Source of the DNA: a virus
Virus record (IMG/VR): IMGVR_UViG_3300029448_000013
Span: 9,263-73,262 of that record
DNA: 64,000 nt
Reading direction: 5' to 3' (one strand)
In this document: positions 1,750 through 47,710 of the stretch, one piece after another
Layout of the letters: every line of letters starts with the position of its first letter
Position numbering within the stretch: position 1 is the first letter of the stretch
The notes under the pieces: model-generated
Seen by the model: only the letters and a program-made list of their open reading frames with translations
The model's database searches: none
What the model was told of the DNA's origin: nothing
Made by a program: the position numbers and the translations under genes

Positions 1750-4700
1750 TTAATCCTCACTTGTGTAATATCCTATAACTTGACCTGCTGTTGTCTCGAA
1801 TCCTAATGTCTCACCAAATCCAAACAGGTCATCAAAGCCCATATTGGCTGTCTCACCCGTTCCAGTAATTGTATACTGAACCAATGTAGTCTTTAACGGT
1901 ATAGAATCCTTGAAGACTTTACCGACTGAAACTTGTTGTGAGTTTCTGCTGAATAATGTAGAGTTGCTAGAACTCTGTTGACTTCCTATTTCTGACAATC
2001 TCTCTGCTATCGTCTTATCAAAAGTACCTACTGTCATTGTGAGAGTTGGTGTTAGTACATTCTGTATCTCAAAGATTACATAATCATTAGGTGGAATATC
2101 ATATTGAGGAAAATCCAAATAAACGATATCACCTGCTTCAAGAGTCTCAAGACCTTTCTTCTCGACATTAAGTGTTATCTTCCTAGCATCTGATGAATGA
2201 AGTGCCAATAATTCGTTTGCCTTTACCTTCGCATCCGTGATAGTTCTGATATTTGCATCTACGAAGTTTATGTGTGTACCACTCTCATCATTTGCCACAC
2301 TTGTTCTTATCCTATCACCAATTACAGTCACTTTGTTAGCCTTAGCAAACAACGAACTATTTTTCTTCACGGAGAAGATTCTATGGCTTCGATAAGAAAT
2401 TCCCTGTTTTCTCAACAAGGCAGCAGAATTTAAATCACGAAATACCACTTTTCTATTATTAATTCTAAAATCCAAGTTCTTCTTTCCTGCTAATTTGTTC
2501 AATACTTGGAAAGCAGATGCTTGAATGAAATTATCGGTACTAACGAATGTTTTCTTGTTGAACTTAATTATCTCATCATTTAGAAGAGGAACGAACCATA
2601 AATCCACATCTGCATCAGTAGTATCTACATCATTAACAGTGATAGTAGTTCCACTAGTAGAGGAAACAGAACCTATTGGATATCCTTCATGTGTGAATAT
2701 TATATCACCATCTGCAATATTCTCTACTGTGGCTTTGCAAGTAATGACATTATTAGAGACTGAACTCACGATGTTTCCAGTGAACTCTGCTTGAGACTGC
2801 ACCATGTCAATATCGAGACCTGCTTCCTTGGCTATACGCTCAATCTCTGTCTCTACCTCTTCACCGATAATCATACTAGTTCCAATATGGCATTTTGATA
2901 TATTGTTTAGATTCGGTTTTCTATCTAACTCCAACTCTATTATCTCACCAAATGACACTACTCCATTTCCAGTTAATGTTCCCTCATATGTTAGTTTAGC
3001 CTCTCGCTGCCTAACTCCATCCTTTATTGATGGTGAAACATCTGTAAAGGTCATTAGTTTCCTTTGTTTATTCATACCATCTGTAATAAAACAATCAAAA
3101 ACATCGCCAGTTGAGAATGGCATGTTATACACAGAATTACTAGGTGTTTCAGGAACTATCGATTCGATACTGCTTGTTTCAGGTGCTTTATCCAAGTTCA
3201 TCAATACATAAGCACTGAATACTCCTTCGTCTAGATGTTGTCTTGAGTTTCCTGACCTGTTACCTGTATCGTATCTAGAAGTAGTTTCACTGTAATCCAA
3301 ACCAGTTGAATGTAATCGATTCAAAATTATCTCTTTCGGTGTATCTCTAAATGTTGTCTCCGCCAGCCTCATCAATCTGAATCTTGGTTTTCTTGCTCGT
3401 TGGTTGCCGAAAAATATGGAATCGTCTTCTATACTTCTATCTAATTTTATTACATGGGTAAATGAAGTGGCTGTGTTAGTTGTTTGATTGGTGGTGTGGC
3501 TGATAATCTTAGCCATGAAACCAATGTTTCCTCCTCTTCCTGACTCAAATATCTCTCCCTTATGTACTGCTGATGCAGCCACCTTTGCAGCAAGACCAAG
3601 AGATAATTCGTCTTTCAACTCCAAAGTCTTCTCAGCAACAAGGTAGTATCCTGTTAGATTCGGAACGAAAGAGAGCCAAGTGTGCTGTGAATCAGAATCA
3701 CTAGTATCAATGGTAATTGTGTCCCTTGCACTATTAGTCTGACTAAGAGTTATGTTCCCATCAGTTATGTCTAGTACAGGTTTTATCATCATCTGCGCTC
3801 TGTATAGTCCACCATCGTTACTAGAGGTGAAATCGGTATCATTATGTAAGTCATATTCTGTGGTTGTTACAGATTCACCTTCGCTAGAACCTAAGAAGTA
3901 TTTCACTCCCAAATCAGTAAAAGACCCTACACCACTATTTCCAGTATTGTCAACTCTGCCTGACCTCGTATGCGTCCCTGTTATTGCATAGGTGTGCGGA
4001 TTATTTTGGAATATCATTGTATTTACAGTGTGTTGGTCAAGGTCAGTTGCACTGTCATTACTGCCCCCATCGAAGCCAGTAACATAATCGGTGTGGTTGG
4101 TTATTTCTTGTCTGCTTCCTAGTATAGCACTTGTTTGAAACATGTCATTTGGTACACTTGGCCCATCTGCACTAATTTTCCTGATGTTTCTAAATACTCC
4201 AATACAGTTCTCATAAGGATGAGCATCGGTATGTAGTCCATATTTTTCTGCACGATGAACATCAGTGGCACTACCGGGTCTATGTACTAAACCTGCAATA
4301 ACCCTTGAACTGTTTGTAAAAATGTCAGTTCCACTATTCAATCCGGTGTCACTATGCCATGTGTATTCAGGATGATATGGACTCAAATCCGAGACATTGG
4401 GATTCGTGCTATGTGTTGATGATTTGAATACGAATGGAATGAAAACACTAGGCGGCAAAAAATCATCACTGTTATTGCTGAGTTTAGCATACTTGAATAT
4501 ACCACCCTCTGAATGATAGTTAGGTCTTGCTAAGTAGACACTTGTGAAATCTACTTTTGCCTGTGACTCAGCAAAGTCATCATTCGTTAGTATTGGTGTT
4601 TGAAACCCTTCATCTTCAAACTTGAATATCTCAAAGGACAACTTTGAGTATTGTCTGATTAGATATGCAGGAGTGTTTAGAGCAGTGTTGTCTCCTGTTA

Positions 4701-8783: not shown

Positions 8784-11288
8784 TCAATCACCAAAAGAAT
8801 AGTAGAAGAGAGTATCATTGTAATTAGGAGTAAGTGTAGAGATACTGGCACATGGAGTTGAAGATTTATGAAATGCAATCTCATAGAGTTCTCCCATGAA
8901 TTGCGTTGCTTTTCTAGCAGTAGCAGACAGACTCGCATCTTGCCCAATGAAACAATCGCCCGGATTTGTATCCAATCTGAACTTGCCGATATTTACCTTT
9001 ACTCTCTTTACTGGTTGGTTATTCAAATACAGGGTAATAGTATTGCTGTCAAAAGACATTCCTACTTTGTTGACTTGCTCTAGATACAATGCTTCTTTTT
9101 GTTGGTCTCTGTATATAGTAGATGTAACCGTTGTAGCGGGATTTGTTGCAAGAGTTATGTTATCACCACTCACACTAGAAACAGTGCCTATCAATGTACC
9201 AACGTTATCGTATATGCTGTTACCAGCACCTATGCTAATCGCTTCTCCTGAACCTACTGTGATTGTTTGGGTGTTTGTACTAAATGCTCCTAAGGTTAGT
9301 CCTGAAGTTATTCCTGTACTGGCAATTGCTTGGTCTCCTGCTGAAGCCGCTATAATAGTAATAACACTTCCACTTCTAGAGACCGACAATGAACCATTGT
9401 GTCCCGAAGAACCTGCAATGACTGCTTTTAGATTATCAGCAGTCGTTTGTGTATTTCCTGCTACGTTTGTAAAGAAGACAACATCATTACTTCCTTCTGT
9501 TGCAGTAGAGCCATTGGTCTCACTATTGTCTCCTTTGGTTGGCTTGTACTTCTTGACGAGACCAGCACTGTCTTCTAAAGTGATGAATGCGGTTGGTGTG
9601 CTTGCGGCAGAGTAGTTGGAAAACTGACTACCACTAACACTAACGACACTAGAGTAGCCACTTACTCTTGCTAGAGCCTGATTAGTTTGAGTTGATGTGC
9701 TTGGAGATGTGACCGTTACTACGCTGCCACTCGCACTCGCTTGGTCTCCTGCAAAATTCGTACCACTAAAAGCAGCATTAATTGCTCCTGCTAAATAACT
9801 AGCAGTGACACTTGTATTGCCTCCTATCAAAACTTTGTGAACAGGACTAACACTTGTTGTGCTGTTAGTATCCAATGTCCCATTTGTAAAAGTACCACTA
9901 AAGAACTTGAAATATTTAGTTTGTAAATTACCAATACTGTTTCTTAATGCTACTGTCATGTAGTAGTTTACATTACTAGCACCTGTGGCATTTGTTCCTC
10001 CTGAGAAAACAGTGGCAGTCAACTTACCACCGTTAGCAATACTAGAACCAATAACAGGACCAGTATTAGGAGTAGTGCTATGGTTTCCTGCTGTTCCAGT
10101 AGCATCTTGTGTCAATGAAATAGTTCCTGTAACACCAGTGACATTGAGAGTTGTAGCAGTAATATCCAATCCTGAACTTGGGTTGCTGCCAACACCATTG
10201 AATGTGTTGATTGCTTGGTTTAACATTAATCTAAAATTTTGACTACTACCACTAGAAGTTAAACCCACTTCAGGAACAAATATGTCAGTCGGTAAATATC
10301 CCGCTCCGGTTAATGCATCGACTATAAGACCACCACCCGTCATACCCGCCATACCATCCATGTCCGATATTCTTGCACTAGCCCCTTGCATTTCAGAAGG
10401 AAATCCATTACTGGAAGAATTATCAATGTAAAAGAATCTATATGTTTTATTTGCACTAGTTCCTGAACCTGTTTGTCTGTTCCTTAAAATGATAGCATTA
10501 TTGTCACTAGGAGCAGTGCTTGCTGTTATCGGAGTAGGACTCCAACCACTACTGAATGTTATAGCCCCTGTTGCTACTGTTGCTGATGAACCAGCGACAT
10601 CCAAGTGGGAAGAACCCGGTTGAGCATTCATCGTGAATGTAGCACTTCCAAGTGTTCCAGCAGTGTTTGTGAAACTAGCCAAGTTTCCTGATACCGTTGT
10701 TGTTGCTGTTGGTAGAGAACCAGTTGCACTACTGGTTATTTTTGTCTTATCTGTTGTTATTCCACTGTATAATCCATTAGGGTCATAATATCCTACAAGG
10801 TTCTTCTGAGAGACAAACACTGGTTCACTTGCAACAGTGTGTGCTATTGGTGTGCCAATGGAGTCAGTTAGTTCAACAACCATCTTGTATTCTGCTGGTT
10901 GATTGAAGTTGGATGACGTAGTATTCTGTAAGTAAAACTTCAGATAGTCATTGCAGAATATCATCATCTTGTGAGTGCTTCTACCTGCTCCGAAGTAACT
11001 GACACTCTCAAAGTCCGATGTTGCATCTGTTTGGTCATCTAATGATAGATTCGGACTAGGAGGGGTTTTTGTGCTGTCGAGTCTTCCCTTTCCCGTTGTT
11101 CTATTACCAACCCCATTTACATCATAGGGAGTTAATATTGCTTCAATACTAAATGGCCCTCCGTAATCCCACAACTCATCTTTAGAAGTATTCGTATTAT
11201 AGTCATCATACTCTATCTTCAGATGTCCATCACACATAACAGGAAATATCAATGCTCTTGTATCTCCTACATGTGCTGTTGTTGCCAT
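8784..11288 (-). CDS. Tail protein with a split LamG-like domain
   Basis: N-terminal GPFSIEAILTP and C-terminal TLYLNNQ...FIGQD...FMGELYEIAF are LamG-like; the middle is S/T/G-rich. Confidence 0.55.
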   Translation of the reverse strand: MATTAHVGDTRALIFPVMCDGHLKIEYDDYNTNTSKDELWDYGGPFSIEAILTPYDVNGVGNRTTGKGRLDSTKTPPSPNLSLDDQTDATSDFESVSYFGAGRSTHKMMIFCNDYLKFYLQNTTSSNFNQPAEYKMVVELTDSIGTPIAHTVASEPVFVSQKNLVGYYDPNGLYSGITTDKTKITSSATGSLPTATTTVSGNLASFTNTAGTLGSATFTMNAQPGSSHLDVAGSSATVATGAITFSSGWSPTPITASTAPSDNNAIILRNRQTGSGTSANKTYRFFYIDNSSSNGFPSEMQGASARISDMDGMAGMTGGGLIVDALTGAGYLPTDIFVPEVGLTSSGSSQNFRLMLNQAINTFNGVGSNPSSGLDITATTLNVTGVTGTISLTQDATGTAGNHSTTPNTGPVIGSSIANGGKLTATVFSGGTNATGASNVNYYMTVALRNSIGNLQTKYFKFFSGTFTNGTLDTNSTTSVSPVHKVLIGGNTSVTASYLAGAINAAFSGTNFAGDQASASGSVVTVTSPSTSTQTNQALARVSGYSSVVSVSGSQFSNYSAASTPTAFITLEDSAGLVKKYKPTKGDNSETNGSTATEGSNDVVFFTNVAGNTQTTADNLKAVIAGSSGHNGSLSVSRSGSVITIIAASAGDQAIASTGITSGLTLGAFSTNTQTITVGSGEAISIGAGNSIYDNVGTLIGTVSSVSGDNITLATNPATTVTSTIYRDQQKEALYLEQVNKVGMSFDSNTITLYLNNQPVKRVKVNIGKFRLDTNPGDCFIGQDASLSATARKATQFMGELYEIAFHKSSTPCASISTLTPNYNDTLFYYSFGD

Positions 11289-11296
11289 ATCTTCAC

Positions 11297-12055
11297 CTAC
11301 ATGTTATTGATTGGGTTCTCAGAGAGAACCTTAGCAACTTCAAACTCTAAGGTGAATTGGACACTATTGGGTTGCTCCCCTGAAAACGTAGTGTTGAAAG
11401 AACGAATGAAGCCTAGCATTCCGGGTAGTTCATCCATTTCAGAAATATCAGTAAAGGAACTCGTTGGGCTTGAGTCTAACAATCCTGAGACACCGACATT
11501 GCTCTCTATGAAATCATTAGCGGCTCTCTTGAATCTTTCATCATATCTTCTATTATCAAACGTGAATGGTATCAATGGTAATTCAGCCATGTCCTTAGTT
11601 TCAGAACCTTCAGGTGAATGATAATTGAAGTTAGTATCTATTCTGCTAGGAATCAGAATGATTATCTTGTTGATTGACTGGTCATCCTGTGCTGCACTAC
11701 TATCTACATAGGAGTGTATTAATTGTGCCAACTCAAACGGGGTGAGTATCTTGTCCTTTTCAGAACCAGCGTTCTCTCCTGTATTCTTTGATATTCGTTG
11801 ATTCAACAGTATTCCATTAAGCGATACGTTCTTGCTCGCTATACCCATATCGAAAGCCAGTGTCTCAGACTTTCCTGTTGCCAACGAACCGAATGGAATC
11901 GGAATTGTAGGAACGGTCTTCTGTGTTCCAATGCTAATCTCGTTCACAAAGAGAGGTATCCTATTGACTGCTCTATCTCCGCCTATCTCGTTTCTTCTTT
12001 GTAGTTCCAACCAAACTCGAAAGTTTGTTCCCGCATATCCTTCACTTGTAGCCAT
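11297..12055 (-). CDS. Putative distal tail protein
   Basis: Directly follows the tape measure gene; C-terminal GFIRSFNTTFSGEQ..VQFTLEF is a tube-fold-like pattern. Confidence 0.45.
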   Translation of the reverse strand: MATSEGYAGTNFRVWLELQRRNEIGGDRAVNRIPLFVNEISIGTQKTVPTIPIPFGSLATGKSETLAFDMGIASKNVSLNGILLNQRISKNTGENAGSEKDKILTPFELAQLIHSYVDSSAAQDDQSINKIIILIPSRIDTNFNYHSPEGSETKDMAELPLIPFTFDNRRYDERFKRAANDFIESNVGVSGLLDSSPTSSFTDISEMDELPGMLGFIRSFNTTFSGEQPNSVQFTLEFEVAKVLSENPINNM

Positions 12056-16967: not shown

Positions 16968-18044
16968 TCACACAATGAAATGTATTATGTCCTTTTTACC
17001 ATTCAAAATTGCGTTTGCCTCTTCCAACAAAATATCATGTTTGGTTTTCAGGTCTATGTTAGAACCAGTTTCTGCAATAAGTATTGAGTTGTCATCATGT
17101 CTTATCACTTCAGCCGCAACTAATTTGGTTGTAGCGTCTTGAATAGTAGCAGGAACTCTAGACTCACCACTAACATATGTTACTCTAATAGAATGTGAAT
17201 GTAGATATGGATAGTTCTTCAAGAAGAATATCTTACCATCTTTATTGATTGTCCAATAGTCTCCTAATCTTCTTTGGTCTTGGTTGTCTGTGAACTGAGT
17301 TACTGTCCCAACTGTGGATGAGATTGTGCAAGCAGAACCATCATCTCCCATTAGAAGAGATGAGATTACAACAGTATCCCCTGCTTCACTATCTGTCGTA
17401 GCATAGAAGAAATCAGAGATATTGACGGTAGTTGCTCCTTGAGCAGTCACAGTCTTAGCAGTAGTCTCACCTGTGAACTTAGCAGTTTTATGCGGAAATA
17501 CTTCGTTGATTGCATCTGCTATTTGACTAGCAGTTGTCTTAGGCCCATAGTTATCAAAGAAATCTACTCCTTTGTCTAGATGGAATGTATATGCTCCAAC
17601 TCCTAATATTATTCTCCAAGAACCACTTTCAGGGCCACTTGGAACTTTAACCTTAGCAGTCGCAGAAGCCAAGTCAACATACTCTGTTCCTTGCCATACC
17701 TCTAGACGTACTAATTTCTGAACATTATTTCTATCTAACTGAACAAATCCAATGTAATCCTTGAATCTGTTTACTGGATACGCACCCATTCTAAACGCTT
17801 CAAACCCATGAAACTCATGATGATAGATAACAGGACGGTAAGAATGTGCTACAATGTCATCAACTCTTTCTTCTGCTCTTCTGATTAATCCACCTACTTC
17901 AGCAATAGATGGAGTTGTAGACGAACTAAATGCGGCTATTTGTAGCAACTGAGAAACATCAGAATGTGTAGTATAAAATCCTCTTCCTTGAGAGTAGTTT
18001 GGATTAATGTTTGTGAAGTCACTTGGGGAGGATAGTTTTGGCAT
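16968..18044 (-). CDS. Head-tail adaptor/connector with an inserted domain
   Basis: N-terminal YTTHSDV...LIRRAEERVD and C-terminal IRVTYVSG...VPATIQDATTKLVA are typical adaptor motifs. Confidence 0.7.
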   Translation of the reverse strand: MPKLSSPSDFTNINPNYSQGRGFYTTHSDVSQLLQIAAFSSSTTPSIAEVGGLIRRAEERVDDIVAHSYRPVIYHHEFHGFEAFRMGAYPVNRFKDYIGFVQLDRNNVQKLVRLEVWQGTEYVDLASATAKVKVPSGPESGSWRIILGVGAYTFHLDKGVDFFDNYGPKTTASQIADAINEVFPHKTAKFTGETTAKTVTAQGATTVNISDFFYATTDSEAGDTVVISSLLMGDDGSACTISSTVGTVTQFTDNQDQRRLGDYWTINKDGKIFFLKNYPYLHSHSIRVTYVSGESRVPATIQDATTKLVAAEVIRHDDNSILIAETGSNIDLKTKHDILLEEANAILNGKKDIIHFIV

Positions 18045-18049
18045 AATAT

Positions 18050-19396
18050 TCAACTCCTGAATCTACGGGCTTTAGCCATGAAGGTCTTAACACCCTTGAG
18101 TATATCAGATATGCCCTTTATTTTATCCTTATCAGCCACAACGAACGCACCTTCTTCTGCAAGTCTTAACTCTCCTTCTTTGTTTAAAATCAAACTATAA
18201 TTAAGAATTCTCTTTTCTTCAACTGAAAGACTTCCTCTATCTTCTTCTTTTCCTGTTGTGCTTTTTGATGGTTTTATTTTTCCACTCTTGAGAGGTTTAT
18301 AGTTAGAGATAGAAACTACAAGAGTCATTTTACCTACATCCAAATCTAGATAGGTTCTTGTTAATTCTGAAAGAGATGGGTCTTGACCTCTTGTTTTTTT
18401 ATCTCTATCCCTAATTCTTCTTGCTACCATAAAATTAGACCTTTCTAATAGATAAATTGCTATCTTGTCTAATTGCTCGTCATCTAAATCTAATAACGTA
18501 TGCAAGTAAGAGATAGCATCGTTTCTACCACCCGATTCATTAACCTCATATTTCTTTTCATGTATGTTGTACGTTAAGGGTATTTCATCGTGTGGTGGTT
18601 TAGAATCCATGCCATAAGAAATTTCTAATTTGTTAGGCTTACCTTTCAATACAAAATCATCAAACTTTATTTTATTGAGTGTAACTGTTTTATTTTTCTT
18701 ATCATTTTCAATGTATTGAAAGTGTTCACCCATGTTTGGGTCTGCCGTTATTCCATCATCTTCTAGTAAAGAGATTAGATATGCTTCTAAATCCCATGTG
18801 TATGATACCCTACCTGACCTATCTATTTCATCATTAGATGTCCTATAATCATCAATCTTATTCGCATCAAAGAGACTTTTATTTTTATCAACCTTATCCA
18901 TTACTTTAGAGCCTTTACCTTCATAGGTTTGCCCTAAATAAGCAGGTAGCAACAGTTGTTCAAAGGTTACTTTTTTCTTAATCAAATTATTTACTATGCT
19001 GTTATCTTTCTCAGGCCCAAATAACTCAAATACTGCTGCACCTTTTTTTGCACTGAAGTTACTTTCCATTGCATTGATAGTTTCAACTACTGGAAGTTTG
19101 AGTGCTTTCTCTATTAATACCTTCATGTATTTTTCATAAGTTTCATATTCTTCTTTAGATTGAAAATCTTTTTCAGTCAAGGACATTAAAATTCTAAAGT
19201 CTCTTTTAATATATTCTTTTTTGAACTTTCTTGTATCTTTAATTTTTTTTTGAAACATCTTGAGAACTAAAGTTCGCAATAGAACAGAAGCATCGTCTGT
19301 TGGATTTACTGTTGCACTGTTTACTGATGCATCGTCTAAGTTGAATATTGTATCCTTGAAGTCGCTATCATTATTCTTGTCGATAGTTAAACTCAT
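18050..19396 (-). CDS. Hypothetical K/D-rich protein
   Basis: 448 aa ORF, visibly AT-rich, no recognised motif. Confidence 0.6.
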   Translation of the reverse strand: MSLTIDKNNDSDFKDTIFNLDDASVNSATVNPTDDASVLLRTLVLKMFQKKIKDTRKFKKEYIKRDFRILMSLTEKDFQSKEEYETYEKYMKVLIEKALKLPVVETINAMESNFSAKKGAAVFELFGPEKDNSIVNNLIKKKVTFEQLLLPAYLGQTYEGKGSKVMDKVDKNKSLFDANKIDDYRTSNDEIDRSGRVSYTWDLEAYLISLLEDDGITADPNMGEHFQYIENDKKNKTVTLNKIKFDDFVLKGKPNKLEISYGMDSKPPHDEIPLTYNIHEKKYEVNESGGRNDAISYLHTLLDLDDEQLDKIAIYLLERSNFMVARRIRDRDKKTRGQDPSLSELTRTYLDLDVGKMTLVVSISNYKPLKSGKIKPSKSTTGKEEDRGSLSVEEKRILNYSLILNKEGELRLAEEGAFVVADKDKIKGISDILKGVKTFMAKARRFRS

Positions 19397-19410: not shown

Positions 19411-20118
19411 CTATGCCAACCACTTTGCCCAAGCGACACCCTTACTCAAAGCACCTGCTAAACCGAGACCGCTTTGAGGTGGTGTATACGATGGTTGACC
19501 AGTAGCGGGGTCAATCCAGTACGGATTATTGAACTGGTCATAACCAGTAGGAGGTATAGGATATCCACTACCATTGTTCATAGCCATTTGTTGAGTCATC
19601 ATTTGTTGGTTCATTCCACCCATAGCAGGTGCGCCTTGTATCTGTGCAGGATTCAAACCTTGTGGATTTCCTACTTGTTGTTGTTGCATTCCTCCCATTT
19701 GTGCTTCTTGAGAGGGAGATGAGAATCCCTGTGACTCTAGGTATTGTTGCTTTGCCATTCTTCTTTGCATTATGACTTCTGAGTTAACTGCTGTTTGTAA
19801 TAGATTAACTATATCCAAATCAATGTTTTCTTGTGTAATACTTGTAAACTCAGACAGTGAATCAGGATGTATTTCTAAATCTCCATTAGTGTTTGAAACA
19901 AATTTCATTTTTACTAACATTTGACTTACTACCCTAGTTGTAACATCTTCCATCATTTTTTCAAATGCATTTAAGAACTGTTCTCCGTGATATTGAAAGA
20001 ACTCTTCAACATGATTTTCCTGCAATGTTAGAAGATTATTAGTCATTTTAAATTGTGATTGCCCCATTGTATTCATCTGCGAAGACAGCGCAGAGTTGCT
20101 TGTTCCGAACATACCCAT
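19411..20118 (-). CDS. Q/M/G-rich protein with WW-like segment and C-terminal amphipathic helix
   Basis: Low-complexity QQQ/MGG region, PYWIDPATGQPSYTPP, ends GLAGALSKGVAWAKWLA. Confidence 0.6.
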   Translation of the reverse strand: MGMFGTSNSALSSQMNTMGQSQFKMTNNLLTLQENHVEEFFQYHGEQFLNAFEKMMEDVTTRVVSQMLVKMKFVSNTNGDLEIHPDSLSEFTSITQENIDLDIVNLLQTAVNSEVIMQRRMAKQQYLESQGFSSPSQEAQMGGMQQQQVGNPQGLNPAQIQGAPAMGGMNQQMMTQQMAMNNGSGYPIPPTGYDQFNNPYWIDPATGQPSYTPPQSGLGLAGALSKGVAWAKWLA

Positions 20119-20798
20119 CAGTTCCCCTCCTCCGGTGTAGTAATCTTAACGCCTTCGGTCAATAAAGATTTAACTTTAGCCGACATCGCTGCGTTTTGTA
20201 TCATTAGTGAATATAATTGTTCTTCTTTTGAAGAAGCGTCATTAGCAGGAGGAGTAATACCCCAACCCAATGAGGTTAGTGAATTGATATCCTCTTGTTT
20301 CAATTGTGTTATTGGCCCTGACTTCACAAGATTTACAGGGTTAAGACTTCTAGCAGATGGGATATAGGCACTAAAAGAAAGTCCATGTTCTTCTGCCAAT
20401 ATCTGCTGTTCTAACATTTCATATTGCATATGTATTTGAGCATGTTTCTCACAATAAGTTCCTCTCATTGGATATCCCTTACGTACCTTGTGCAGTGGAA
20501 GTGGTGGTCTTCTAGTATCGTTAGAAGTCCATATCTTCTGTGTTCCACATATTACACATCTATCTTTGATGTTGTATTTGAAACTGTAAGGCACTTTCAG
20601 CATTGTTTTCTTTTCAGGTTTCAATACTTTGATAATTTCCTTCAATTGTTTCTTTGGCTTCATTGATTTATACTCGTATGGCATTATCGGCCCTGCTGCT
20701 CTTGCAGCAGTTAGCCTATCCATAAACGGGTTAGGGCCAGCATTTATTGTTGCGTTCGTTGCTCCTATCAAACTAGGGGGTGTAAATTGCATAGACAT
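20118..20798 (-). CDS. Putative Zn-binding protein
   Basis: CVICG...YCEKH motif. Confidence 0.55.
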   Translation of the reverse strand: MSMQFTPPSLIGATNATINAGPNPFMDRLTAARAAGPIMPYEYKSMKPKKQLKEIIKVLKPEKKTMLKVPYSFKYNIKDRCVICGTQKIWTSNDTRRPPLPLHKVRKGYPMRGTYCEKHAQIHMQYEMLEQQILAEEHGLSFSAYIPSARSLNPVNLVKSGPITQLKQEDINSLTSLGWGITPPANDASSKEEQLYSLMIQNAAMSAKVKSLLTEGVKITTPEEGN

Positions 20799-20859
20799 TT
20801 TATTTTTTCTCCTATCAATCTAAGCCTACCTTGCGGTGAGACCTAAGTAGTCTGACGTA

Positions 20860-21531
20860 TCAGTAGTCTTTTATCATTGTTAATACTCCACGATAGACCA
20901 TTTCAGAATCAGACTTAGCACTCACTATGTATTTGTGGCATGGAATACCCGTTTCATTTAACTTCTGAAGTCCGGGTTTGAATGATGCAAATATTGGGTG
21001 GTCTTCTATTTTTCCAGCATGTGGATACTTATCTTTCCAAAGGTCATACTTGTTTGCCCACAGACCAACTGCTAACGGGTAGTCATGGTCTTGTTTCTTT
21101 TTCTTTCTTCCACCAATTGTGTAATATTGATTACATATTGTATCTACAAGAAATGTCCAAGACAACTGTTGTTCGATATCATAGTGCTTATCTAAATGCC
21201 TATCATCAAATAGGAATACAATGTATTTGACATGTCTTTCCCTCATATCTCTAACCCATTCTTCCCAATATACTGTCTGTCCTCCTATGTCAGCAGTCTT
21301 GATTGTATGAGCATCCCCGTCTAACTTTACAAATTTTCTAGTTGCTCTATGTCTCCCAACAGTTCGTTTTTGTATTTCAGGAACTTCACCCCTAGTCATC
21401 AACTGTCGATGCAGTGTTGTTTTACCTGCTTTGCTTGCTCCATAAATCCCGAAGTTAATAGCGTGGAGGCGATTATACAGTTTATTCATTGCCTCTACAA
21501 TGAGTATTGCAAACCCTGCCATTACCGACAT
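20860..21531 (-). CDS. Ras-superfamily (Arf-like) small GTPase
   Basis: G1 GASKAGKT, G2 RTVG, G3 DIGGQ, G4 ANKYD, G5 SAK; hydrophobic N-terminal helix. Confidence 0.85.
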   Translation of the reverse strand: MSVMAGFAILIVEAMNKLYNRLHAINFGIYGASKAGKTTLHRQLMTRGEVPEIQKRTVGRHRATRKFVKLDGDAHTIKTADIGGQTVYWEEWVRDMRERHVKYIVFLFDDRHLDKHYDIEQQLSWTFLVDTICNQYYTIGGRKKKKQDHDYPLAVGLWANKYDLWKDKYPHAGKIEDHPIFASFKPGLQKLNETGIPCHKYIVSAKSDSEMVYRGVLTMIKDY

Positions 21532-21585
21532 ACTAACACCCCTTCAGTGAGTCGGATGTCGGAGAGCATTAAAATGGTTGAGAAT

Positions 21586-21807
21586 CTAATGCCCGCCCCA
21601 AAGAGAGGAAAGTAGATGCCAACCTCCACTGTATAGATTGATTCCCCATAGAGAAATAGCGTGTCCTACAAAGAAACTAACAACAGAAGATATTATTCCC
21701 CAAAGCCAAAACCTTGCTCTTAGAAACCACACATCAGCAGAGTGCGCTCGTTGTAAATCATATGCGAGAGTGGATTCATCCATCCCGAATAAGATTTCAC
21801 TTACCAT
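21586..21807 (-). CDS. Small membrane protein
   Basis: Hydrophobic FWLWGIISSVVSFFVGHAISLWGI, Trp-rich. Confidence 0.65.
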   Translation of the reverse strand: MVSEILFGMDESTLAYDLQRAHSADVWFLRARFWLWGIISSVVSFFVGHAISLWGINLYSGGWHLLSSLWGGH

Positions 21808-21812
21808 TCAAA

Positions 21813-22241
21813 TCACTCTTGGAATCCTGTCAAGAAAGTAGGACTAACTGTTTGCACTTCTTGTTGCTTTTGTAATGTAGGAAGGTTTGGGTCTCCATAC
21901 ACTGTTTGTCCAACACCGAATTGTTGTTGGAAACCTCTAAATGATTCCCTGACTCTCTTTCGGTTTTCTTCATCTCTTGCCTTTCTGTTCCAGTATGAGT
22001 TGATTTGTCTTTGAAGTAGGAAGTCTTCAATGTAGTCGTTAACAAACAAATCAAACAGTGCTTTTAGAATGACTATGCCACCTACGGTTAATACCCCGAA
22101 TATCATAGCAACTGGATAAGAACCGTATGCGTTGACAAAAGTTGTGCCATATTGTGAGAAGAAGTAAACATTTACTCCGCTAACTGCTCCAACAAATAGA
22201 ACAGTCATTATTAGTCTAGTATCTGTATCTATGCTTGGCAT
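21813..22241 (-). CDS. Membrane protein with two predicted TM helices
   Basis: LIMTVLFVGAVSGVNVYFF and YPVAMIFGVLTVGGIVILKAL, then a charged helical tail; GAGGTGA RBS before MPSID. Confidence 0.7.
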   Translation of the reverse strand: MPSIDTDTRLIMTVLFVGAVSGVNVYFFSQYGTTFVNAYGSYPVAMIFGVLTVGGIVILKALFDLFVNDYIEDFLLQRQINSYWNRKARDEENRKRVRESFRGFQQQFGVGQTVYGDPNLPTLQKQQEVQTVSPTFLTGFQE

Positions 22242-22251
22242 AGTAATCACC

Positions 22252-22548
22252 TCAAGCAAAGTTAACAGACACAGTTCCAGTGCCAGTAATCTGAACGAAT
22301 ATTCCGTTGGCTACTAGAACACCATGTAGGTCTTGCTCAATGGTTTGAGCAGTTCCTCCTGCATGTAATACTAGTCGAGCAACCTCCTTCTTGCTCGTTG
22401 TTGTGGAGTTGTCACTGTCCCATATCTTGACAGTCATTACAGCGTTTGCTGTTGATGTAGCGTGAACACTCATTATCTTAGCATGATGTTTTACTGCTAC
22501 TGTGCTTGTAGAAAGAACTCCGGTACTGTTGCAGGTAGGTGATGCCAT
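22252..22548 (-). CDS. Small beta-rich virion protein
   Basis: 98 aa T/V/S-rich, ends NGIFVQITGTGTVSVNF; head module context. Confidence 0.5.
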   Translation of the reverse strand: MASPTCNSTGVLSTSTVAVKHHAKIMSVHATSTANAVMTVKIWDSDNSTTTSKKEVARLVLHAGGTAQTIEQDLHGVLVANGIFVQITGTGTVSVNFA

Positions 22549-23033
22549 CACTCTGCCTCCGACAATCTCTCTACTAGGTCTGCTTTCTTTCCTTCTGTGG
22601 AAAGACCCCTTTCTGTCAAAACAACCTTTAGTTCCTTAACGGTTAGTTCTGACCAATCCATATCCAATGGTGCTTCACCATCTTCTACGGCTTCTTCTAC
22701 CACTGGCTCTTCGACTACGGGAGTCTCTTTGATGAGTTTAGGAATGAATGACTTCTTTGCTGAAGGGAACATAACTGCTCTTACTGCTTTAGCATCTCCT
22801 TCGACATTGAACTCTTTCTTCAATAAGTTAAGTAGATAGTCATTCAATTGTAGTATCTCTGAAGAATCTGAAGCATCGAACTCTATTGTTATTCCTGAGT
22901 CTCCTAGCATTCCTATTGCTATTCCTAACGGAACTTTCGTTTCTTCTTGCGCTGTTAATGCATATGTCTGACCGCCTCTTCTCAAAAGAAGTGGCCCTGA
23001 CACTCTATGTCTTGCTAACTTTACCTTTGCCAT
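22548..23033 (-). CDS. Protein with C-terminal SAP/HeH domain
   Basis: WSELTVKELKVVLTERGLSTEGKKADLVERL matches the SAP consensus. Confidence 0.8.
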   Translation of the reverse strand: MAKVKLARHRVSGPLLLRRGGQTYALTAQEETKVPLGIAIGMLGDSGITIEFDASDSSEILQLNDYLLNLLKKEFNVEGDAKAVRAVMFPSAKKSFIPKLIKETPVVEEPVVEEAVEDGEAPLDMDWSELTVKELKVVLTERGLSTEGKKADLVERLSEAE

Positions 23034-26120: not shown

Positions 26121-28685
26121 TTATTCAGGTAATTGTAAATTACTATACTTGTCCTTGGTGATGTCGATAATTCCTTCATCGGATGAGTCTTCTAACATCT
26201 CTTGTTTCTTTCCTGTAAATACTATCCAAGACTTCTTTTCATCTAGTGGAACAACTCGGAAATGTATTCTAGATTGAAACTTGTCTCCTTCCATTCTATA
26301 TTCATGGTATCCATCTCTTTGAACACCAAAGATTAACTCACCACTATCTAGTATTTTACTGCTGTCTATCTTCTCTGAAACCATTGCAGGGAATTTTCCT
26401 GACTTACCAAACAAATCGAATATGTCTTCAGGTTTATCTATATCAATCAACCAAGCCATTCTTTTGTCATCTGTCTCGATTATAAAATCGATGTTTCCAT
26501 CTTCTCGTTGCCTAACCTCAAACTCTCCTGCTAGTTCTTCTTCTTCGTCTTTTTCTATATTCTCAGGAGACACATCGAATCTGTTTGGAGAAAGGAAAAC
26601 AAAAGCGTCTTGATTTTTCAACCAAGCAAGTAGTTCTTTTGGTTTACCTTCAAAGATTTCATCATATGCGTCTTCCTCTGTAATCCTGAGTTTTTCTTCT
26701 AGTTCGTCAAACTCTATTGCTTTTTGATTGTCTTCTATGATTTTTCTAATCGCAACCCTTAGTTTTGACTTTCTAGATTTCATCAGTTTCTCTAGTTGAC
26801 CTTTCCAGTCATCCATATTGTAAAGAGCATTCTTCTGCATCAGTGAATCACCATCGAACCCATAGACAGTGAAACCTTCTAAGTCATGTTTGCAGATTAT
26901 CTCTGCTTCACCGTGAACGTAATCTGTAACAATATACTTCCTTATCTTCTTCTTGTTCTTTCTCTCTCTTTGAAGTTCTGCTATCACAGTAAGAGGATTA
27001 GCCAAATCTGATGGTTTCATGAACGGATGTCTAGGCACTAGTGCTTTCTTAGTCTTAGATGCCAGTTGTTCTAGGGTCTCTAGTTTATCTGATTCATCTA
27101 CTTCAGGCAACTCTATCACTTTAGCAGAATAGAGGCTGAAGCCCTTTCCTTTCTTAGTAACCTCATCAACCTTAACACGAATGATTGTGCCTATGTCAAC
27201 CTCAACTTTAGTATTCAATGCCTTACCAACAGGAAGATAGTTCTTATCATCAAGTTCTATTGTCTTCATCTCTCTTGTTTGTTCCGCAGTTAATGGGCCA
27301 ATTCCCATAGTGTAGGAATGTAGGCCGCTTTTTGTTTTCTTATCCTCTAAAACTATTACATCCAAATCAACGAACTTCTTCCATTTAATCCACTTCGGGT
27401 TTTTCTTTCTACCCATGTAGTATGTTGATTCTATGTCTTTAATGACAACACCTTCTGATGTAGGCATGTCCATGATTTTCTCTGCGTATTCTCCGACTTC
27501 TTTCATAGAGTCAGCGATTCTTGTATCTTTCTTAGAAGGAAATGCCAACTCATCCGATGAGTGTTGTGAGTATTGGTAGAACATAATGTTGATTCTTTCT
27601 CTCAAAGGTTCATCCATCATATCCTTGCCTTCGTGTTTCATCACATCAAACACATGCGCTCTGAGTTTTGTATCGGGTATCTTCTTCTTGAAGATGTGAG
27701 TAATCACATTCGCTCTATGTAGCGCATCATCTCCTTGGAAGAGAAGAAGTTCCCCGTCTAATATACAGTCACCAATTCCCTTCTTTTCCATTTTCTCTAC
27801 AATCTCAGGACACTTATCTGTTATGTCCTTTTGATTATATGAGTATATTTTGATATTGTCTCCTACTTTGTGAATCTGTATTCTCATCCCGTCATATTTT
27901 TCTTGAACAACGTATTCCCCACTTAGACCCTTGATGTCTTTCATGTCATCAAGTTCAAAGATACGATACATTGGTTTGTTAGGCACAATAAAGTCGATAT
28001 CTTCTTTCTCTTCTTCTGACTTTGCAATATCTATATCTTTCAAAGATTCCCACTTGTCTTCGGAATAACTTTCATTATACACTTCTTTCAGTAGAGAAAG
28101 TGCCTCCTTGAATTTTCCTTTGACTCTCTTTGAATCTTTGTCATCTCCGTAATGTTCTATGATGTAAAGTGGAATGTCTTTCTCCTCTAAATCTAATCCC
28201 ATAAATCCTTGAGTTATTTCATCAGGTTTCAATTCGTTCTCCTCCCATGCTTTCTTGGGTATTGGATTTGAGTGGCTTCTCAATGCATAGTGAACGAAGG
28301 CTGCAAAGGTTGCTTTATCTTCCAACAATACCTCTAACACCTTGTCGCCTAATTGTTTTGAGAATGGGTCTGATGCACCCTTTGATTCAAATCTCATCCT
28401 CTTTACATCTTCATAGATTCTCCTAGCAAGGAGACTTTCAGCATCATATACCTTATTGTCAAAGAGTTCTTTTTCTTTGATATGTTCTTTCAGTTCAGAA
28501 GCAAACTCTCCTAGTCCGTCATACTCTTCACGTATGGACTTGACAGTTGACTTCCACTTCTTACCGTATTCCTTCGGATTTTCCTTTGCAGATAGATATG
28601 CATAACGTACTCTCTCAAAGAAATCTAAAACTCTTTTTGATAGAGCCTTAGTTTCCTTTTCAAAGGACACGCCTGATGTTGTCAT
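26121..28685 (-). CDS. lig: ATP-dependent DNA ligase with N- and C-terminal extra domains
   Basis: Motifs I EKYDG, III LDGEL, IIIa FDVM, IV EGVVIK, V WIKWK, then an OB domain; C-terminus resembles a degenerate LigD phosphoesterase domain. Confidence 0.9.
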   Translation of the reverse strand: MTTSGVSFEKETKALSKRVLDFFERVRYAYLSAKENPKEYGKKWKSTVKSIREEYDGLGEFASELKEHIKEKELFDNKVYDAESLLARRIYEDVKRMRFESKGASDPFSKQLGDKVLEVLLEDKATFAAFVHYALRSHSNPIPKKAWEENELKPDEITQGFMGLDLEEKDIPLYIIEHYGDDKDSKRVKGKFKEALSLLKEVYNESYSEDKWESLKDIDIAKSEEEKEDIDFIVPNKPMYRIFELDDMKDIKGLSGEYVVQEKYDGMRIQIHKVGDNIKIYSYNQKDITDKCPEIVEKMEKKGIGDCILDGELLLFQGDDALHRANVITHIFKKKIPDTKLRAHVFDVMKHEGKDMMDEPLRERINIMFYQYSQHSSDELAFPSKKDTRIADSMKEVGEYAEKIMDMPTSEGVVIKDIESTYYMGRKKNPKWIKWKKFVDLDVIVLEDKKTKSGLHSYTMGIGPLTAEQTREMKTIELDDKNYLPVGKALNTKVEVDIGTIIRVKVDEVTKKGKGFSLYSAKVIELPEVDESDKLETLEQLASKTKKALVPRHPFMKPSDLANPLTVIAELQRERKNKKKIRKYIVTDYVHGEAEIICKHDLEGFTVYGFDGDSLMQKNALYNMDDWKGQLEKLMKSRKSKLRVAIRKIIEDNQKAIEFDELEEKLRITEEDAYDEIFEGKPKELLAWLKNQDAFVFLSPNRFDVSPENIEKDEEEELAGEFEVRQREDGNIDFIIETDDKRMAWLIDIDKPEDIFDLFGKSGKFPAMVSEKIDSSKILDSGELIFGVQRDGYHEYRMEGDKFQSRIHFRVVPLDEKKSWIVFTGKKQEMLEDSSDEGIIDITKDKYSNLQLPE

Positions 28686-43673: not shown

Positions 43674-43970
43674 CTACTGTCCTCTTCTTCTAATTGAATC
43701 AATAATATCTTTCTCTAACATTTTATCCCAAAATCCATCTGCATCGGGTAAAGTTCCATCGGCCTCTATGTCTGCATCCTTTATTAAAAACAAGTATTCA
43801 ACCAGTTCTCTTAGGTATTTTTCTCCCAATCCCTTTCTTTCTTCTCCATCATGATGAAAAGACAAAATTCCCCAATAACCCGCATAGAAAACTTCTGCAC
43901 TTGCCTTTCCATCTTTTGAATCCCAAAAAATTTCTAATTCTTCTTGTTTAAGAATATTTTTCCAACTCAT
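43674..43970 (-). CDS. W-tag GNAT-like protein (MSWKNILKQ)
   Basis: ERKGLGEKYLREL (acetyl-CoA motif A) and ADGFWDKM; ATGA-coupled to the TerS-like gene. Confidence 0.6.
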   Translation of the reverse strand: MSWKNILKQEELEIFWDSKDGKASAEVFYAGYWGILSFHHDGEERKGLGEKYLRELVEYLFLIKDADIEADGTLPDADGFWDKMLEKDIIDSIRRRGQ

Positions 43971-44629
43971 TGTAACTTCTCCTGCATCTTGTCTCTTACA
44001 TCCAACCAAACTTCAGGATGATTCTGTGCTAGAACCTCCTTGATGACTTGCATCTGATGAACGATGATAGTGTCTTGCCTCTTATGTACCAGTTTGCCCT
44101 TAAATTCTAGCAAATACTTCAGAGACTCACGAACTTCCTTCGCTAATTTAGTCAATGAGTCGATATATTTCGGGTCTGTTGAGTCTTCAGCAAAAAGCGT
44201 ATCAATTTTTTGCTCTAATCTCTGAACATTCACACTCAGAGTTTCGATTTCGTCAACTTCTCTAGTTGCAATCAGGTTCGCAGCAGATTGTTGGACAATT
44301 GGCTGAAGATGTTTCTCCATATGTCGCATGACTTGGACATCTGAGCAACCAACCATCTCTCCGACTGCTGAAGGAGTGACTTCTCCGGCATGAAGTCTTG
44401 ATTCTATTTCTGCTCTCATTGGATTGGAGCAGATATTGCAACTTGGATTTGCTGAATCGACATATCCGCCCATGTGATTCCTCTGATGTTTGGCAGTTGT
44501 GCCACTTTTCCAGTTCATTTCTTGGTCGAGAGCGTCTGCTGTGATATTCCATGATTCCAAATCAGCCTCAAGTTGACTCCTATCCTCATGCATACACAAA
44601 GGACAACGCTTTCTAGTAATCATACTCAC
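43967..44629 (-). CDS. Putative terminase small subunit / duplicated Zn-HTH protein
   Basis: Two CxxC...HTH...HxxxH units (CPLC..HQRNH; CNIC..HMEKH) followed by a coiled coil. Confidence 0.55.
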   Translation of the reverse strand: MSMITRKRCPLCMHEDRSQLEADLESWNITADALDQEMNWKSGTTAKHQRNHMGGYVDSANPSCNICSNPMRAEIESRLHAGEVTPSAVGEMVGCSDVQVMRHMEKHLQPIVQQSAANLIATREVDEIETLSVNVQRLEQKIDTLFAEDSTDPKYIDSLTKLAKEVRESLKYLLEFKGKLVHKRQDTIIVHQMQVIKEVLAQNHPEVWLDVRDKMQEKLQ

Positions 44630-46828: not shown

Positions 46829-47175
46829 AGAACATCTCCCAATAAGACGGCTACCTTGTTTAACCCTACAATTAGTGACTCTATTTCCTTAGTTGTAGTG
46901 TCTTTCAATAATTTTTCATTTTGCTGTAAATCCCCATCTGTGTAATCTTCTAAGTCGTTTAGTAATTCTAAAACATCAAAATGTGCTGTTCTCATTTGAC
47001 CTATTGAGGCTTGCCTACGAGGACTAAACGCATCGGGTTGTAAGTCAAACTCTCTAATATTCGCCTCTGTGAATTTTCTATCCTCTAAATCTTCTGCTGT
47101 TATCTCTCTTGGGTTTTTTGGATTCTCTTTGGAATGAATAGTTCCCTTTCTTTTCACTACGTCTTCCCAACTCAT
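46825..47175 (-). CDS. W-tag protein (MSWEDVVKR)
   Basis: GAGGT RBS; first tagged gene of the block. Confidence 0.65.
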   Translation of the reverse strand: MSWEDVVKRKGTIHSKENPKNPREITAEDLEDRKFTEANIREFDLQPDAFSPRRQASIGQMRTAHFDVLELLNDLEDYTDGDLQQNEKLLKDTTTKEIESLIVGLNKVAVLLGDVL

Positions 47176-47236
47176 TTCCAATACCTCTTTCCTTGATTGT
47201 ATAGCAACTCAAAATCAATCTTAGTAGTGTAATTCA

Positions 47237-47710
47237 TCAGTCGCATCTCCATAGTTCCTCATCTGAGATTAACTCATACTCGGACTCTAGCATGACATCC
47301 GAGACATCGGCATACGATAATACTTCTGAATAACCAAGAGTTAACAGAAAACCAATTAACTCGATTAAATTAGTTTCTTCTATTGGCCTCAGTATAGCAA
47401 TCTTAGGATAATGAGACAATCGCTGATTTCTACGATATACCATCTCCTTCAGAATGCCTTTCTTCCTGTGAACTGGCTTCACATAGTTATTGCCTATGAA
47501 GTACCAAGTTCCCATATCAGCAAATGAGGTGTGGGCCACAATTTGGTCATCTACGAACTTCCCAATAACATACATGTTATCACAGATATGCTCAGGATAA
47601 CCCTTCTCTAAAGCAGTCAGGAAACTATCTCCCCAACGAGCCTGAATTTCGCTCTCTCTCAAAAAGCCTGAGAACCATTCACCCTTATCATTGGTTTTAA
47701 CAGGTAGCAA
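47237..47710 (-). CDS. GNAT-family acetyltransferase-like protein
   Basis: YVKPVHRKKGILKEM motif A and LLTLGY; start uncertain. Confidence 0.6.
   Translation of the reverse strand: MLPVKTNDKGEWFSGFLRESEIQARWGDSFLTALEKGYPEHICDNMYVIGKFVDDQIVAHTSFADMGTWYFIGNNYVKPVHRKKGILKEMVYRRNQRLSHYPKIAILRPIEETNLIELIGFLLTLGYSEVLSYADVSDVMLESEYELISDEELWRCD

Follow-up and report, generated by a model that had tools for sequence, protein, structure and literature searches.

The closest functional analogue of the locus treated here is the ArvABC (OapABC) system of Euryarchaeota and DPANN archaea. In PMC10927574, ArvA of Haloferax volcanii is described as a small GTPase with an N-terminal amphipathic helix, whose deletion abolishes extracellular vesicles and whose overexpression multiplies them, and its operon partners, ArvB and the Zn-ribbon protein ArvC, are proposed to serve as guanine nucleotide exchange factor (GEF) and GTPase-activating protein (GAP); Zn fingers, according to the same text, form part of GAPs for Arf-like GTPases. 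A further point of reference is provided by the Asgard 'Arf-related' (ArfR) GTPases, including GerdArfR1 (8OUN), which bioRxiv 10.1101/2024.02.28.582541 presents as almost exclusive to Asgard archaea, alongside other prokaryotic groups such as ArfL. For archaeal tailed viruses, a review (PMC10791045) calls the egress machinery 'completely uncharacterized' and states that the whole cell envelope is disrupted. The present analysis concerns a stretch of 64,000 nucleotides, positions 9,263 to 73,262 of IMG/VR virus record IMGVR_UViG_3300029448_000013 (hereafter the window), and within it a cassette of five genes at 19411-22259 that includes a gene for a small GTPase. The five genes are one unit co-conserved in four lineages, and it is tentatively proposed that their products remodel or breach the host membrane.

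The cassette comprises five open reading frames (ORFs) arranged head to tail on the minus strand. TM148 (21813-22259) has a TTG start at 22259 and an alternative ATG at 22241, and is followed by TM73 (21586-21807), the 223-aa GTPase (20860-21531), Zn226 (20118-20798), and QMG235 (19411-20118). Intergenic gaps measure 5, 54, and 61 nt, and Zn226 and QMG235 overlap by 1 nt; start and stop codons that overlap or nearly touch in several lineages suggest coupled expression. A Kyte-Doolittle scan finds two transmembrane (TM) segments in TM148, one in TM73, and none in the GTPase, Zn226, or QMG235, in agreement with an original prediction, made from the DNA letters alone, of two membrane proteins upstream of the GTPase; that prediction began the first gene at the ATG at 22241, and the TTG lies further out. 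The block is flanked on one side by the capsid gene and three small genes, one with a SAP domain, and on the other by g361, with the tail tube gene beyond. HCTV-1 gp117, a homolog of g361, is of unannotated function and lies five genes past that virus's capsid gene. PADLOC defense models gave 0 matches to the five proteins, and a scan with bacterial promoter and terminator models, which do not include archaeal promoters, found no enrichment.

Homologs of the GTPase numbered 351 at E ≤ 0.001 among 525 candidates, many more than chance would give, and the loci sampled were the best matches per query, a choice under which lineages without the block would go unseen. Group 1, the window's own kind, is represented by the best 80 of 214 viral loci. 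By tblastn, all five genes are present in 72 of these 80, and the remaining eight are cut by locus ends, three beginning ≤280 nt upstream of the GTPase gene and five ending soon after the start of the Zn gene. Order and strand are the same in 72/72 untruncated loci. Counted singly, TM73 is found in 80/80 loci, TM148 in 77/80, and QMG235 in 75/80, with all three and all five absences, respectively, falling at locus ends. Median identity is 76.9% for the GTPase, 76.2% for the major capsid protein (MCP), 69.8% for Zn226, 68.1% for TM73, 67.7% for QMG235, and 64.1% for TM148, making the GTPase the best-conserved gene of the neighborhood in a set of loci that were picked by similarity to the GTPase and whose lowest GTPase identity is bounded by that choice. 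GTPase and MCP identities are correlated across 73 group-1 loci (r = 0.85). The ratio of nonsynonymous to synonymous substitution rates (dN/dS) is 0.06 for the GTPase, 0.15 for TM148, 0.17 for TM73, and 0.19 for QMG235 (range for the non-GTPase genes 0.14-0.19), estimated from 14 sequences per gene and 10-63 pairs at a dS of 1.2-1.6, near saturation; purifying selection acts on all five genes.

The same block recurs at much greater distance. Group 2, the kind of protein P0134, is represented by the best 80 of 127 viral loci and has a GTPase about 30% identical to that of the window, with one GTPase ORF in 80/80 loci. Its genes run in the order two-TM protein (median 188 aa), one-TM protein (82 aa), GTPase (240 aa), Cys/His protein (312 aa), Q/M/G-rich protein (206 aa), and TM protein (81 aa), and the stop of the one-TM gene overlaps the GTPase start. 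Alignments of groups 1 and 2 compared with hhalign reach probabilities of 99.9% for the GTPase (E 3.9e-36), 93.2% for the Zn protein (E 2.9e-7), and 92.1% for the QMG protein (E 6.1e-7), against 0.1-10% (E 0.003-0.8) for nine mismatched control pairs. Group 3 (the P0133 kind) consists of four loci, with the same five genes in the two inspected, and group 4 (the P0131 kind) of 11 metagenome loci, with the same genes in the two inspected, hidden Markov model (HMM) matches in the others, and a third TM protein after QMG. Searched against 506 ORFs, group-2 HMMs recover the longer TM protein of groups 3 and 4 (1e-15 to 1e-20, the proteins in the TM148 position thus being mutually homologous in groups 2-4), the shorter TM protein (1e-4 to 1e-7), the third TM protein, the Zn protein (1e-28 to 1e-49 in groups 3 and 4), and, in group-4 loci only, the QMG protein (2e-11 to 3.5e-7). 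GTPase identity between the lineages is about 30-35%, and the flanks differ by group, consisting of capsid accessory genes, a protein of about 2000 aa, a chaperonin-like protein, or a glycosyltransferase-like protein, the last two recognized by eye. The original prediction had proposed a five-gene cassette; the five genes are one unit co-conserved in four lineages, well beyond what that prediction could draw on.

Additional genes accompany the cassette in some groups. An extra ORF of 54-75 aa lies between the GTPase and Zn-like genes in 20/80 group-2 loci; one of these (L157:7740-7937, plus strand) passes the Pfam cut-off for a MazE/AbrB-type domain (PF04014, 25.1 bits, E 1.7e-5) and another (L129:7727-7906, plus strand) fails it. 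Just upstream of the group-3 cassette, L174:4250-5785 and L177:3820-5481 (both plus strand) encode a 511-553-aa protein that by eye resembles a group II chaperonin (thermosome). Group 4 has a 248-260-aa protein with an extremely D/E-rich C-terminal half between the small TM gene and the GTPase gene (L189:6217-6999 and L185:6253-6999, both plus strand). A motif of the type EPMD[LI]A[MW]xLLK, also noticed by eye, is repeated in large and otherwise unrelated proteins flanking the group-2 cassette, at L129:3919-6036 (plus), 2385-3857 (minus), and 10728-12020 (plus), and in genome G002 at 46924-47982 (plus), where a regular expression finds one copy; it could be a shared docking or targeting peptide. 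A regular-expression search for EPMD[LI]A[MW] found none in the window's ORFs.

All motifs of a complete G1-G5 GTPase can be read in the window protein, as originally predicted. G1 is GASKAGKT (residues 31-38), G2 in switch I is T57, G3 is DIGGQ (81-85) followed by YWEEW (W89 and W92), G4 is NKYD (160-163), and G5 is SAK (204-206), with IVFLFD at residues 104-109 and a Lys-rich insertion of about 25 residues ahead of G4. In an alignment of the window protein with 15 relatives at 62-77% identity, every one of these motifs is invariant save Q85, and across groups 1-3 the residues G36, K37, D81, G84, W92, N160, K161, and D163 are invariant. Position 85 is Gln in the window and Glu in the group-1 consensus, and Q, E, H, A, or D occurs among members; because the residue after DxGG varies in this way, Q85 is not an 'Arf-type Gln' family trait.

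The AlphaFold2 (AF2) model of the GTPase, with a predicted local distance difference test score (pLDDT) of 68.8 and a predicted template modeling score (pTM) of 0.71, is of moderate quality and shows a G domain preceded by an N-terminal helix (residues 3-22); pLDDT falls below 50 at switch I and the interswitch (47-65, 72-74, and 82-84), too low to read an interswitch toggle. With Foldseek, at least 500 PDB structures match at E ≤ 0.001, the top ones being Rab6B, Gi, Ras, and Arl at a probability of 1.00. The top VIA-align match is an Asgard RagA-like GTPase (Z 14.3, root-mean-square deviation 3.2, 162 aligned residues), and the span of Z 14.3-13.4 takes in Asgard RagA-like, Gi-alpha, Gs-alpha, Arf6, Arl2, SR-beta, and Sar1. 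Because translation-factor G domains, at Z 12-13.5 or about 1-2 Z below the top, trail it by as little as about 1 Z, structure alone cannot choose a subfamily. By its conserved motifs and predicted fold, the protein is assigned to the Ras-like superfamily (P-loop, TRAFAC). The N-terminal segment is hydrophobic in 16/16 sequences of groups 1-3, with a hydrophobic moment of 0.26-0.56 against a G-domain mean of 0.20, in keeping with the hydrophobic/amphipathic helix that the original prediction had placed there.

The nearest family within that superfamily emerges from profile comparisons. Searched alone against PDB sequences, the window GTPase finds none beyond a chance antibody match (E 0.57). 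A profile of 19 sequences that includes distant members (A2) has as its best PDB match GerdArfR1, 8OUN_A (E 5.6e-12), followed by Arl3, Arl8, and Arf1 at about 1e-9 to 1e-7, together with engineered G-alpha chains, and by KRas at about 5e-8; the alignment to 8OUN spans the N-terminal helix through G3. Because the most distant rows of A2 might pull toward Arf, a second search was run with a profile of 16 sequences, all from verified cassettes (A3). It gives 8OUN at 3.9e-4, Arl8 and Arl10 at about 1e-3, and then Rab33B at 2.7e-3, with ranking margins of just 2-3 bits and with P-loop-only matches to RecA (concatemers) set aside. W92, the family's conserved Trp, sits seven residues after the Gln position and falls on the corresponding Trp of GerdArfR1 in the HMMER alignment, and a switch II Trp at that spacing is what we take to be a signature of Arf, Sar, and G-alpha proteins. 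At E ≤ 0.01 the Pfam Arf model is matched by 5/16 group-1 members, and the distant relatives P0154, P0188, P0193, and P0199 exceed its cut-off at 26.8-39.5 bits with Arf as their best family; P0154 is linked to the group-1 profile at E 1.2e-15. Past the protein's own viral clusters, the nearest named clusters listed by the language-model Atlas all have Arf as leading Pfam family, which is a lead rather than a test, and the automatic JGI name of some members is 'GTPase SAR1 family protein.'

Among 1.84 billion representative proteins, a profile matched 80 at E ≤ 0.001: one full-length cluster belonging to the window's group, several more remote full-length proteins (220-280 aa), and many fragments, with no large cellular family and no close cellular homolog among the 80. 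The distant members looked up are metagenomic proteins on contigs of up to 59-97 kb; P0154 has three relatives only in the large protein collection, and a viral-contig context sought for P0131, P0154, and P0193 was found for none. The GTPase is best read as a separate, highly diverged Ras-like family whose nearest detectable relatives are of Arf/Arl/ArfR type. That likeness is only moderately supported, by modest score differences rather than by a tree, and placing the protein within the Arf family proper would go beyond the evidence.

The partner proteins are less readily classified. TM148 has predicted TM helices at residues 16-34 and 50-68; a charged helix comes next, and the tail is rich in Q. 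TM73 has a single predicted helix at about residues 33-56 and a Trp-rich tail, and its positional counterparts in groups 2-4 are 69-86 aa long. Zn226 has a basic N-terminal helix motif followed by C81-x2-C84 and C116-x2-H119, of which C81 and C116 are invariant in groups 1-3 together with G85, T114, and Y115. None of 1042 homologs found with the Zn226 family profile has a Pfam domain, and its AF2 model (pLDDT 58.1) gave nothing at E ≤ 0.001 in Foldseek against PDB, only helix hairpins in a wide VIA-align search (best Z 4.4), and an uninformative best score of 0.78 in the ESM Atlas. A complex prediction of GTPase (A3) and Zn226 (A4) with GTP and Mg, run without controls, scored 0.00 against a mark of 0.32 and is evidence neither way. 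QMG235 has a conserved globular core of about 100 aa (29-128), a stretch of 83 residues (129-211) that is 64% Q/M/G/N/P, and a Gly/Ala-rich C-terminus. The original description of this last protein as Q/M/G-rich is confirmed in composition; the 'WW-like' segment and terminal amphipathic helix that it also named are confined to the window's lineage and lack Pfam support, and at the C-terminal helix the hydrophobic moment is low (0.14-0.25).

The cassette shares its orientation with the structural and packaging block in all lineages, lying either beside that block or within it. In the group-2 genome G002 it stands directly before the homolog of window ORF 43967-44629, which opens the terminase-portal-protease-capsid-tube series. 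The location 'inside the virion module' given by the original prediction applies to the window's lineage only, because 21-23 kb separate cassette and capsid gene in three complete genomes of group 2; the block has thus shifted as a whole, inside the late region or to its margin. Between G002 and the window, identity is 33% for the GTPase, 37% for the MCP, 35% for the protease, 37% for the terminase, and 52% for the portal; the GTPase has diverged much like the MCP, protease, and terminase and therefore fits long vertical descent in these viruses rather than recent capture. Recent isolated capture from a host, the contrary case named by the original prediction, is further disfavored by the lack of a close cellular homolog in the searches above. 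Among 185,579 species genomes the GTPase occurs only at two loci, both in one metagenome-assembled genome (MAG) labeled Maricaulis sp., and among plasmids no homolog of the window GTPase was found. The two Maricaulis-labeled contigs, L178 (28.9 kb) and L179 (12.2 kb), carry the GTPase at 70% and 60% identity and are probably mis-binned viral contigs rather than bearers of a host gene.

RNA data add little. In libraries X17 and X19, from two studies, short contigs fall on pieces of the genes for the GTPase, TM73, TM148, and QMG235, with stronger cover of capsid and protease; this is a weak hint of transcription, as the contigs show neither strand, level, nor timing and may stem from DNA carry-over. 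RNA runs X7 and X11 yield contigs (44 kb and 9-16 kb) that cover the whole 18-kb stretch evenly, and these runs are uninformative on transcription because even cover looks like DNA or whole-genome assembly.

The record behind the window is a 73-kb IMG/VR virus with a CheckV completeness of 76%. The virus encodes a prohead protease (PF04586), an MCP (PF17236), a portal (PF04860), and a tail tube (PF18906), a ribonucleotide reductase found by domain scan, and a large terminase, tape-measure protein, and tail chaperone found with PHROGs. Relatives of the MCP among GenBank phages are archaeal tailed viruses only, the best matches being the haloarchaeal Druskaviridae HCTV-1 and HVTV-1 (25-27% identical across 87% of the MCP). 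Magroviruses, which infect Marine Group II archaea (Poseidoniales), are marine relatives of Druskaviridae according to PMC11706807 and PMC8651126. Because the MCP relatives are Druskaviridae and magroviruses are their marine relatives, the window's virus is labeled magrovirus-like, a label that, like the host it implies, is inferred from these relatives rather than from comparison with a named magrovirus genome. Among marine archaeal viruses this group is very abundant.

The reading preferred here, with confidence somewhat below an even chance, is that the five genes form a conserved late module of magrovirus-like tailed viruses in which a diverged Arf/Sar/SR-beta-like GTPase switch remodels or breaches the host membrane. 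A hydrophobic-helix GTPase, coupled small membrane proteins, and two further partners, co-inherited in the late region, point to a nucleotide-switched complex at the host membrane. The GTPase would bind GTP, become attached to the host cytoplasmic membrane by its N-terminal hydrophobic helix, by the co-encoded pair of membrane proteins, or by both, and there recruit the Cys/His protein and the Q/M-rich low-complexity protein; the resulting assembly would deform or breach the membrane late in infection, the likeliest purpose being virion release from a host needing no wall-degrading enzyme. The parts of this scheme that we infer are that the GTPase binds and hydrolyzes GTP, that it binds membrane, that the five proteins touch one another, that they act late, and that they serve egress. 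None of the five proteins matches a holin, endolysin, or spanin family in Pfam or PHROGs at E ≤ 0.1. In the window, the original prediction's statement that no holin/endolysin pair is recognizable agrees with Pfam and PHROG scans of 16 ORFs singly and 62 as a set, among the matches listed (25 of 26 PHROG families) and for an incomplete record. Holins are diverse and often unrecognizable by sequence.

Several results weigh against this reading, beginning with the GTPase itself. The window protein scores 22.3 bits with the Pfam model Roc, 20.9 with MMR_HSR1, and 16.9 with Arf (PF00025; E 0.0045, cut-off 22.3), each under its cut-off, and the group-1 profile finds no match in the PDB. 'Arf-like,' the term used in the original prediction, is weakly supported: the broad profiles, the bridging relatives, and the Atlas lead favor it, and the Pfam scores, the group-1 profile, and the Gln position, which is mostly Glu, do not. 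Because most group-1 members have Glu at this catalytic position, hydrolysis may be slow or partner-dependent, and no 'timer' is implied; the GTP-timed membrane remodeling or egress put forward in the original prediction is a conjecture. The N-terminal helix is only moderately amphipathic, and membrane association is a prediction. Homology of TM148 to its counterparts elsewhere is undetected by hhalign (probability 2% against group 2 and 3.2% against pooled groups 2-4), and so is that of TM73 (0.4% and 7.7%), although alignments of the TM proteins to the pooled groups are in register over both helices despite control-like scores. The second Cys/His motif of Zn226 is lost in group 4 and ligands are incomplete in single members, so zinc binding is not a constant of this partner family, and the 'Zn-binding' label of the original prediction is not supported as a general one. 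The known vesicle operon offers no direct link, in that an HMM for ArvB (OapB, PF09846) found none at E ≤ 0.01 in the window's own record and one for ArvC (OapC, PF09845) found 0/5 virus records at E ≤ 10, both with a positive H. volcanii control. GenBank phages contain no homolog of the window GTPase or of the group-2 GTPase P0134, and related haloarchaeal viruses with a homologous MCP lack the GTPase. Finally, the module always lies among or beside structural and packaging genes, a constancy that a morphogenetic or virion role fits equally well.

Such a role, in which the GTPase would be an assembly chaperone or checkpoint, or the TM and low-complexity proteins would be packaged as an entry channel for DNA delivery, is regarded as unlikely, yet as a serious rival and the strongest of the competitors. 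Besides the shared orientation and position in every lineage, it would account for a window cassette placed between the MCP and the HCTV-1 gp117 homolog, for a group-2 cassette just upstream of the block that leads toward terminase, portal, and capsid, and for a GTPase as conserved as the MCP. Tailed phages do encode membrane-spanning ejection proteins inside their structural modules, yet a small Ras-like GTPase is not known to us from the assembly or the particle of any tailed virus, a matter on which no search was made. Against close coupling to a single assembly step stands the movement of the cassette as a unit relative to the capsid genes, with 21-23 kb separating it from the MCP gene in group 2; the haloarchaeal relatives that manage with a homologous MCP and no GTPase also count against this role. 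Rather less probable is that the module manipulates the host without releasing virions, by vesicles or membrane proliferation that would provide decoys, a block to superinfection, or a compartment for replication or assembly. ArvA makes vesicles and its overexpression leads to hypervesiculation, according to PMC10927574, and the viral block shares with Arv the outline of an N-terminal-helix GTPase followed by a Cys/His protein, here with membrane proteins as the GTPase's neighbors. However, the OapB and OapC families were not found in the searches above, and a location in a block of presumably late expression is unusual for takeover or exclusion genes.

A soluble GTPase of, for example, the Era/Der/EngB kind, acting apart from its membrane neighbors and tied to them by inherited gene order alone, is very improbable. 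MMR_HSR1 is matched at E ≤ 0.01 by 15/16 group-1 members and TIGR00231 (small_GTP) by 10/19 members of A2, and translation-factor G domains come within about 1-2 Z of the top structural match (Z 12-13.5), but the MMR_HSR1 matches do not rise above the cut-off and are limited to the generic G1-G3 half, RNA-binding domains (KH, OB, or any other) are absent, and profile matches put Arf/Arl first. Inherited linkage is also hard to reconcile with a unit kept in four lineages with rearranged flanks and with overlapping reading frames. Ranked together, membrane remodeling and release comes ahead of virion assembly or DNA delivery, which in turn precedes host manipulation through vesicles or compartments, with the soluble housekeeping-type GTPase, an unlikely candidate, last. 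A bolder extension of membrane remodeling is decidedly doubtful: TM148 and TM73 would be receptors or exchange factors, the helix-bearing GTPase the switch, the Cys/His protein its partner, and the low-complexity protein a scaffold, so that this minimal Arf/Sar-type machine would be the missing egress system of archaeal tailed viruses and at the same time an ancient non-Asgard Arf-related lineage in viruses of Thermoplasmatota that could have moved such GTPases between archaea.

Other genes around the cassette and elsewhere in the window merit brief description. Between the capsid gene and the cassette, 22548-23033 (minus strand) encodes a 161-aa protein with a C-terminal SAP DNA-binding domain (PF02037, E 1.7e-11), which is unusual for head genes; the protein is poorly conserved, with a median identity of 54% in close loci. 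On the other side, between the cassette and the gp117-like gene, g448 (18050-19396, minus) is hypervariable while both neighbors are conserved; it was found in 21/80 close loci, 12 of them at ≥70% coverage, with a median identity of 50%, and may be a diversity hotspot. The N- and C-terminal parts of g361 (16968-18053, minus) both match HCTV-1 gp117 (223 aa) at E 3e-9 each, and its middle holds about 130 residues extra relative to gp117; it also matches phrog_17057. Between the portal block and the prohead protease, 26121-28685 (minus) encodes a protein of 854 aa whose ATP-dependent DNA ligase domain matches PF01068 (E 3.3e-30); its counterpart in G002 is 1879 aa long. Among the 62 window ORFs, single ORFs match ThiF (E 6.7e-18), the PAP2 lipid phosphatase superfamily (2e-13), pyrimidine-dimer glycosylase (1.4e-8), and the TFIIB zinc ribbon (2.4e-5); a PAP2 enzyme in the same virus as a membrane cassette is possibly of interest.

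The word 'GTPase' is absent from the main texts of PMC5434244, PMC10160649, PMC11706807, PMC8651126, and PMC10768690, and no paper on such a gene in archaeal or Poseidoniales viruses was found by titles and abstracts, with the limit in both cases that supplementary annotation tables may list it. The cassette is new as a described system, its G domain having already been noticed by automatic annotation in the JGI names, and as a kind, a small GTPase with operon partners on an archaeal membrane is already known. The cassette offers a concrete and cloneable candidate for how head-tailed archaeal viruses leave their hosts, conserved like the capsid gene in four or more deep lineages. Few prokaryotic small GTPases with Arf-like features are known, and the cassette extends their list by a viral branch, which makes it relevant to the debate on the origin of eukaryotic membrane-trafficking GTPases.

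Comparison with known systems places the cassette beside several of them and within none. Phage holin lysis cassettes likewise group genes for small proteins with one or two TM helices among the late genes of a tailed virus, but the viral module has no match to a holin, endolysin, or spanin family, and lysis cassettes known to us lack a GTPase. Initiation of COPII and COPI coats (Sec12-Sar1-Sec23/24-Sec13/31; Arf-ArfGAP) joins a membrane-anchored factor, an amphipathic-helix GTPase, a Zn-containing partner directed at the GTPase, and a low-complexity partner; the likeness is one of working logic, an analogy and not membership, and Pfam, profile, and fold searches related no partner in sequence or fold to coat, GEF, or GAP proteins. 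With the Arf family (ArfR 8OUN/8OUM, Arl3/Arl8, Sar1, and SR-beta) the viral GTPase shares a predicted helix directly before strand 1, DxGG plus Trp, NKxD, and a length of about 190-250 aa, and the DIGGH in G3 of group 3 presumably resembles the His form of Sar1 and SR-beta. It differs in its sub-cut-off Pfam score, unconserved Gln position, and Lys-rich insertion of about 25 residues before G4. The likeness to ArvABC extends to a helix-bearing prokaryotic small GTPase in a tight operon with two soluble partners, one of them a Cys-rich protein of Zn type, to an archaeal host domain, and to action at the cell membrane, shown for Arv and proposed for the viral proteins. In contrast to ArvABC, the viral module is virus-encoded and contains, besides, two or three small TM proteins and a low-complexity protein rich in Q and M, and by a comparison made on the OapB and OapC families it is analogous to the Arv operon rather than a member of it. 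If the membrane-remodeling reading holds, the cassette would stand beside ArvABC as a second, independent system for GTPase-driven membrane deformation on archaeal lipids.

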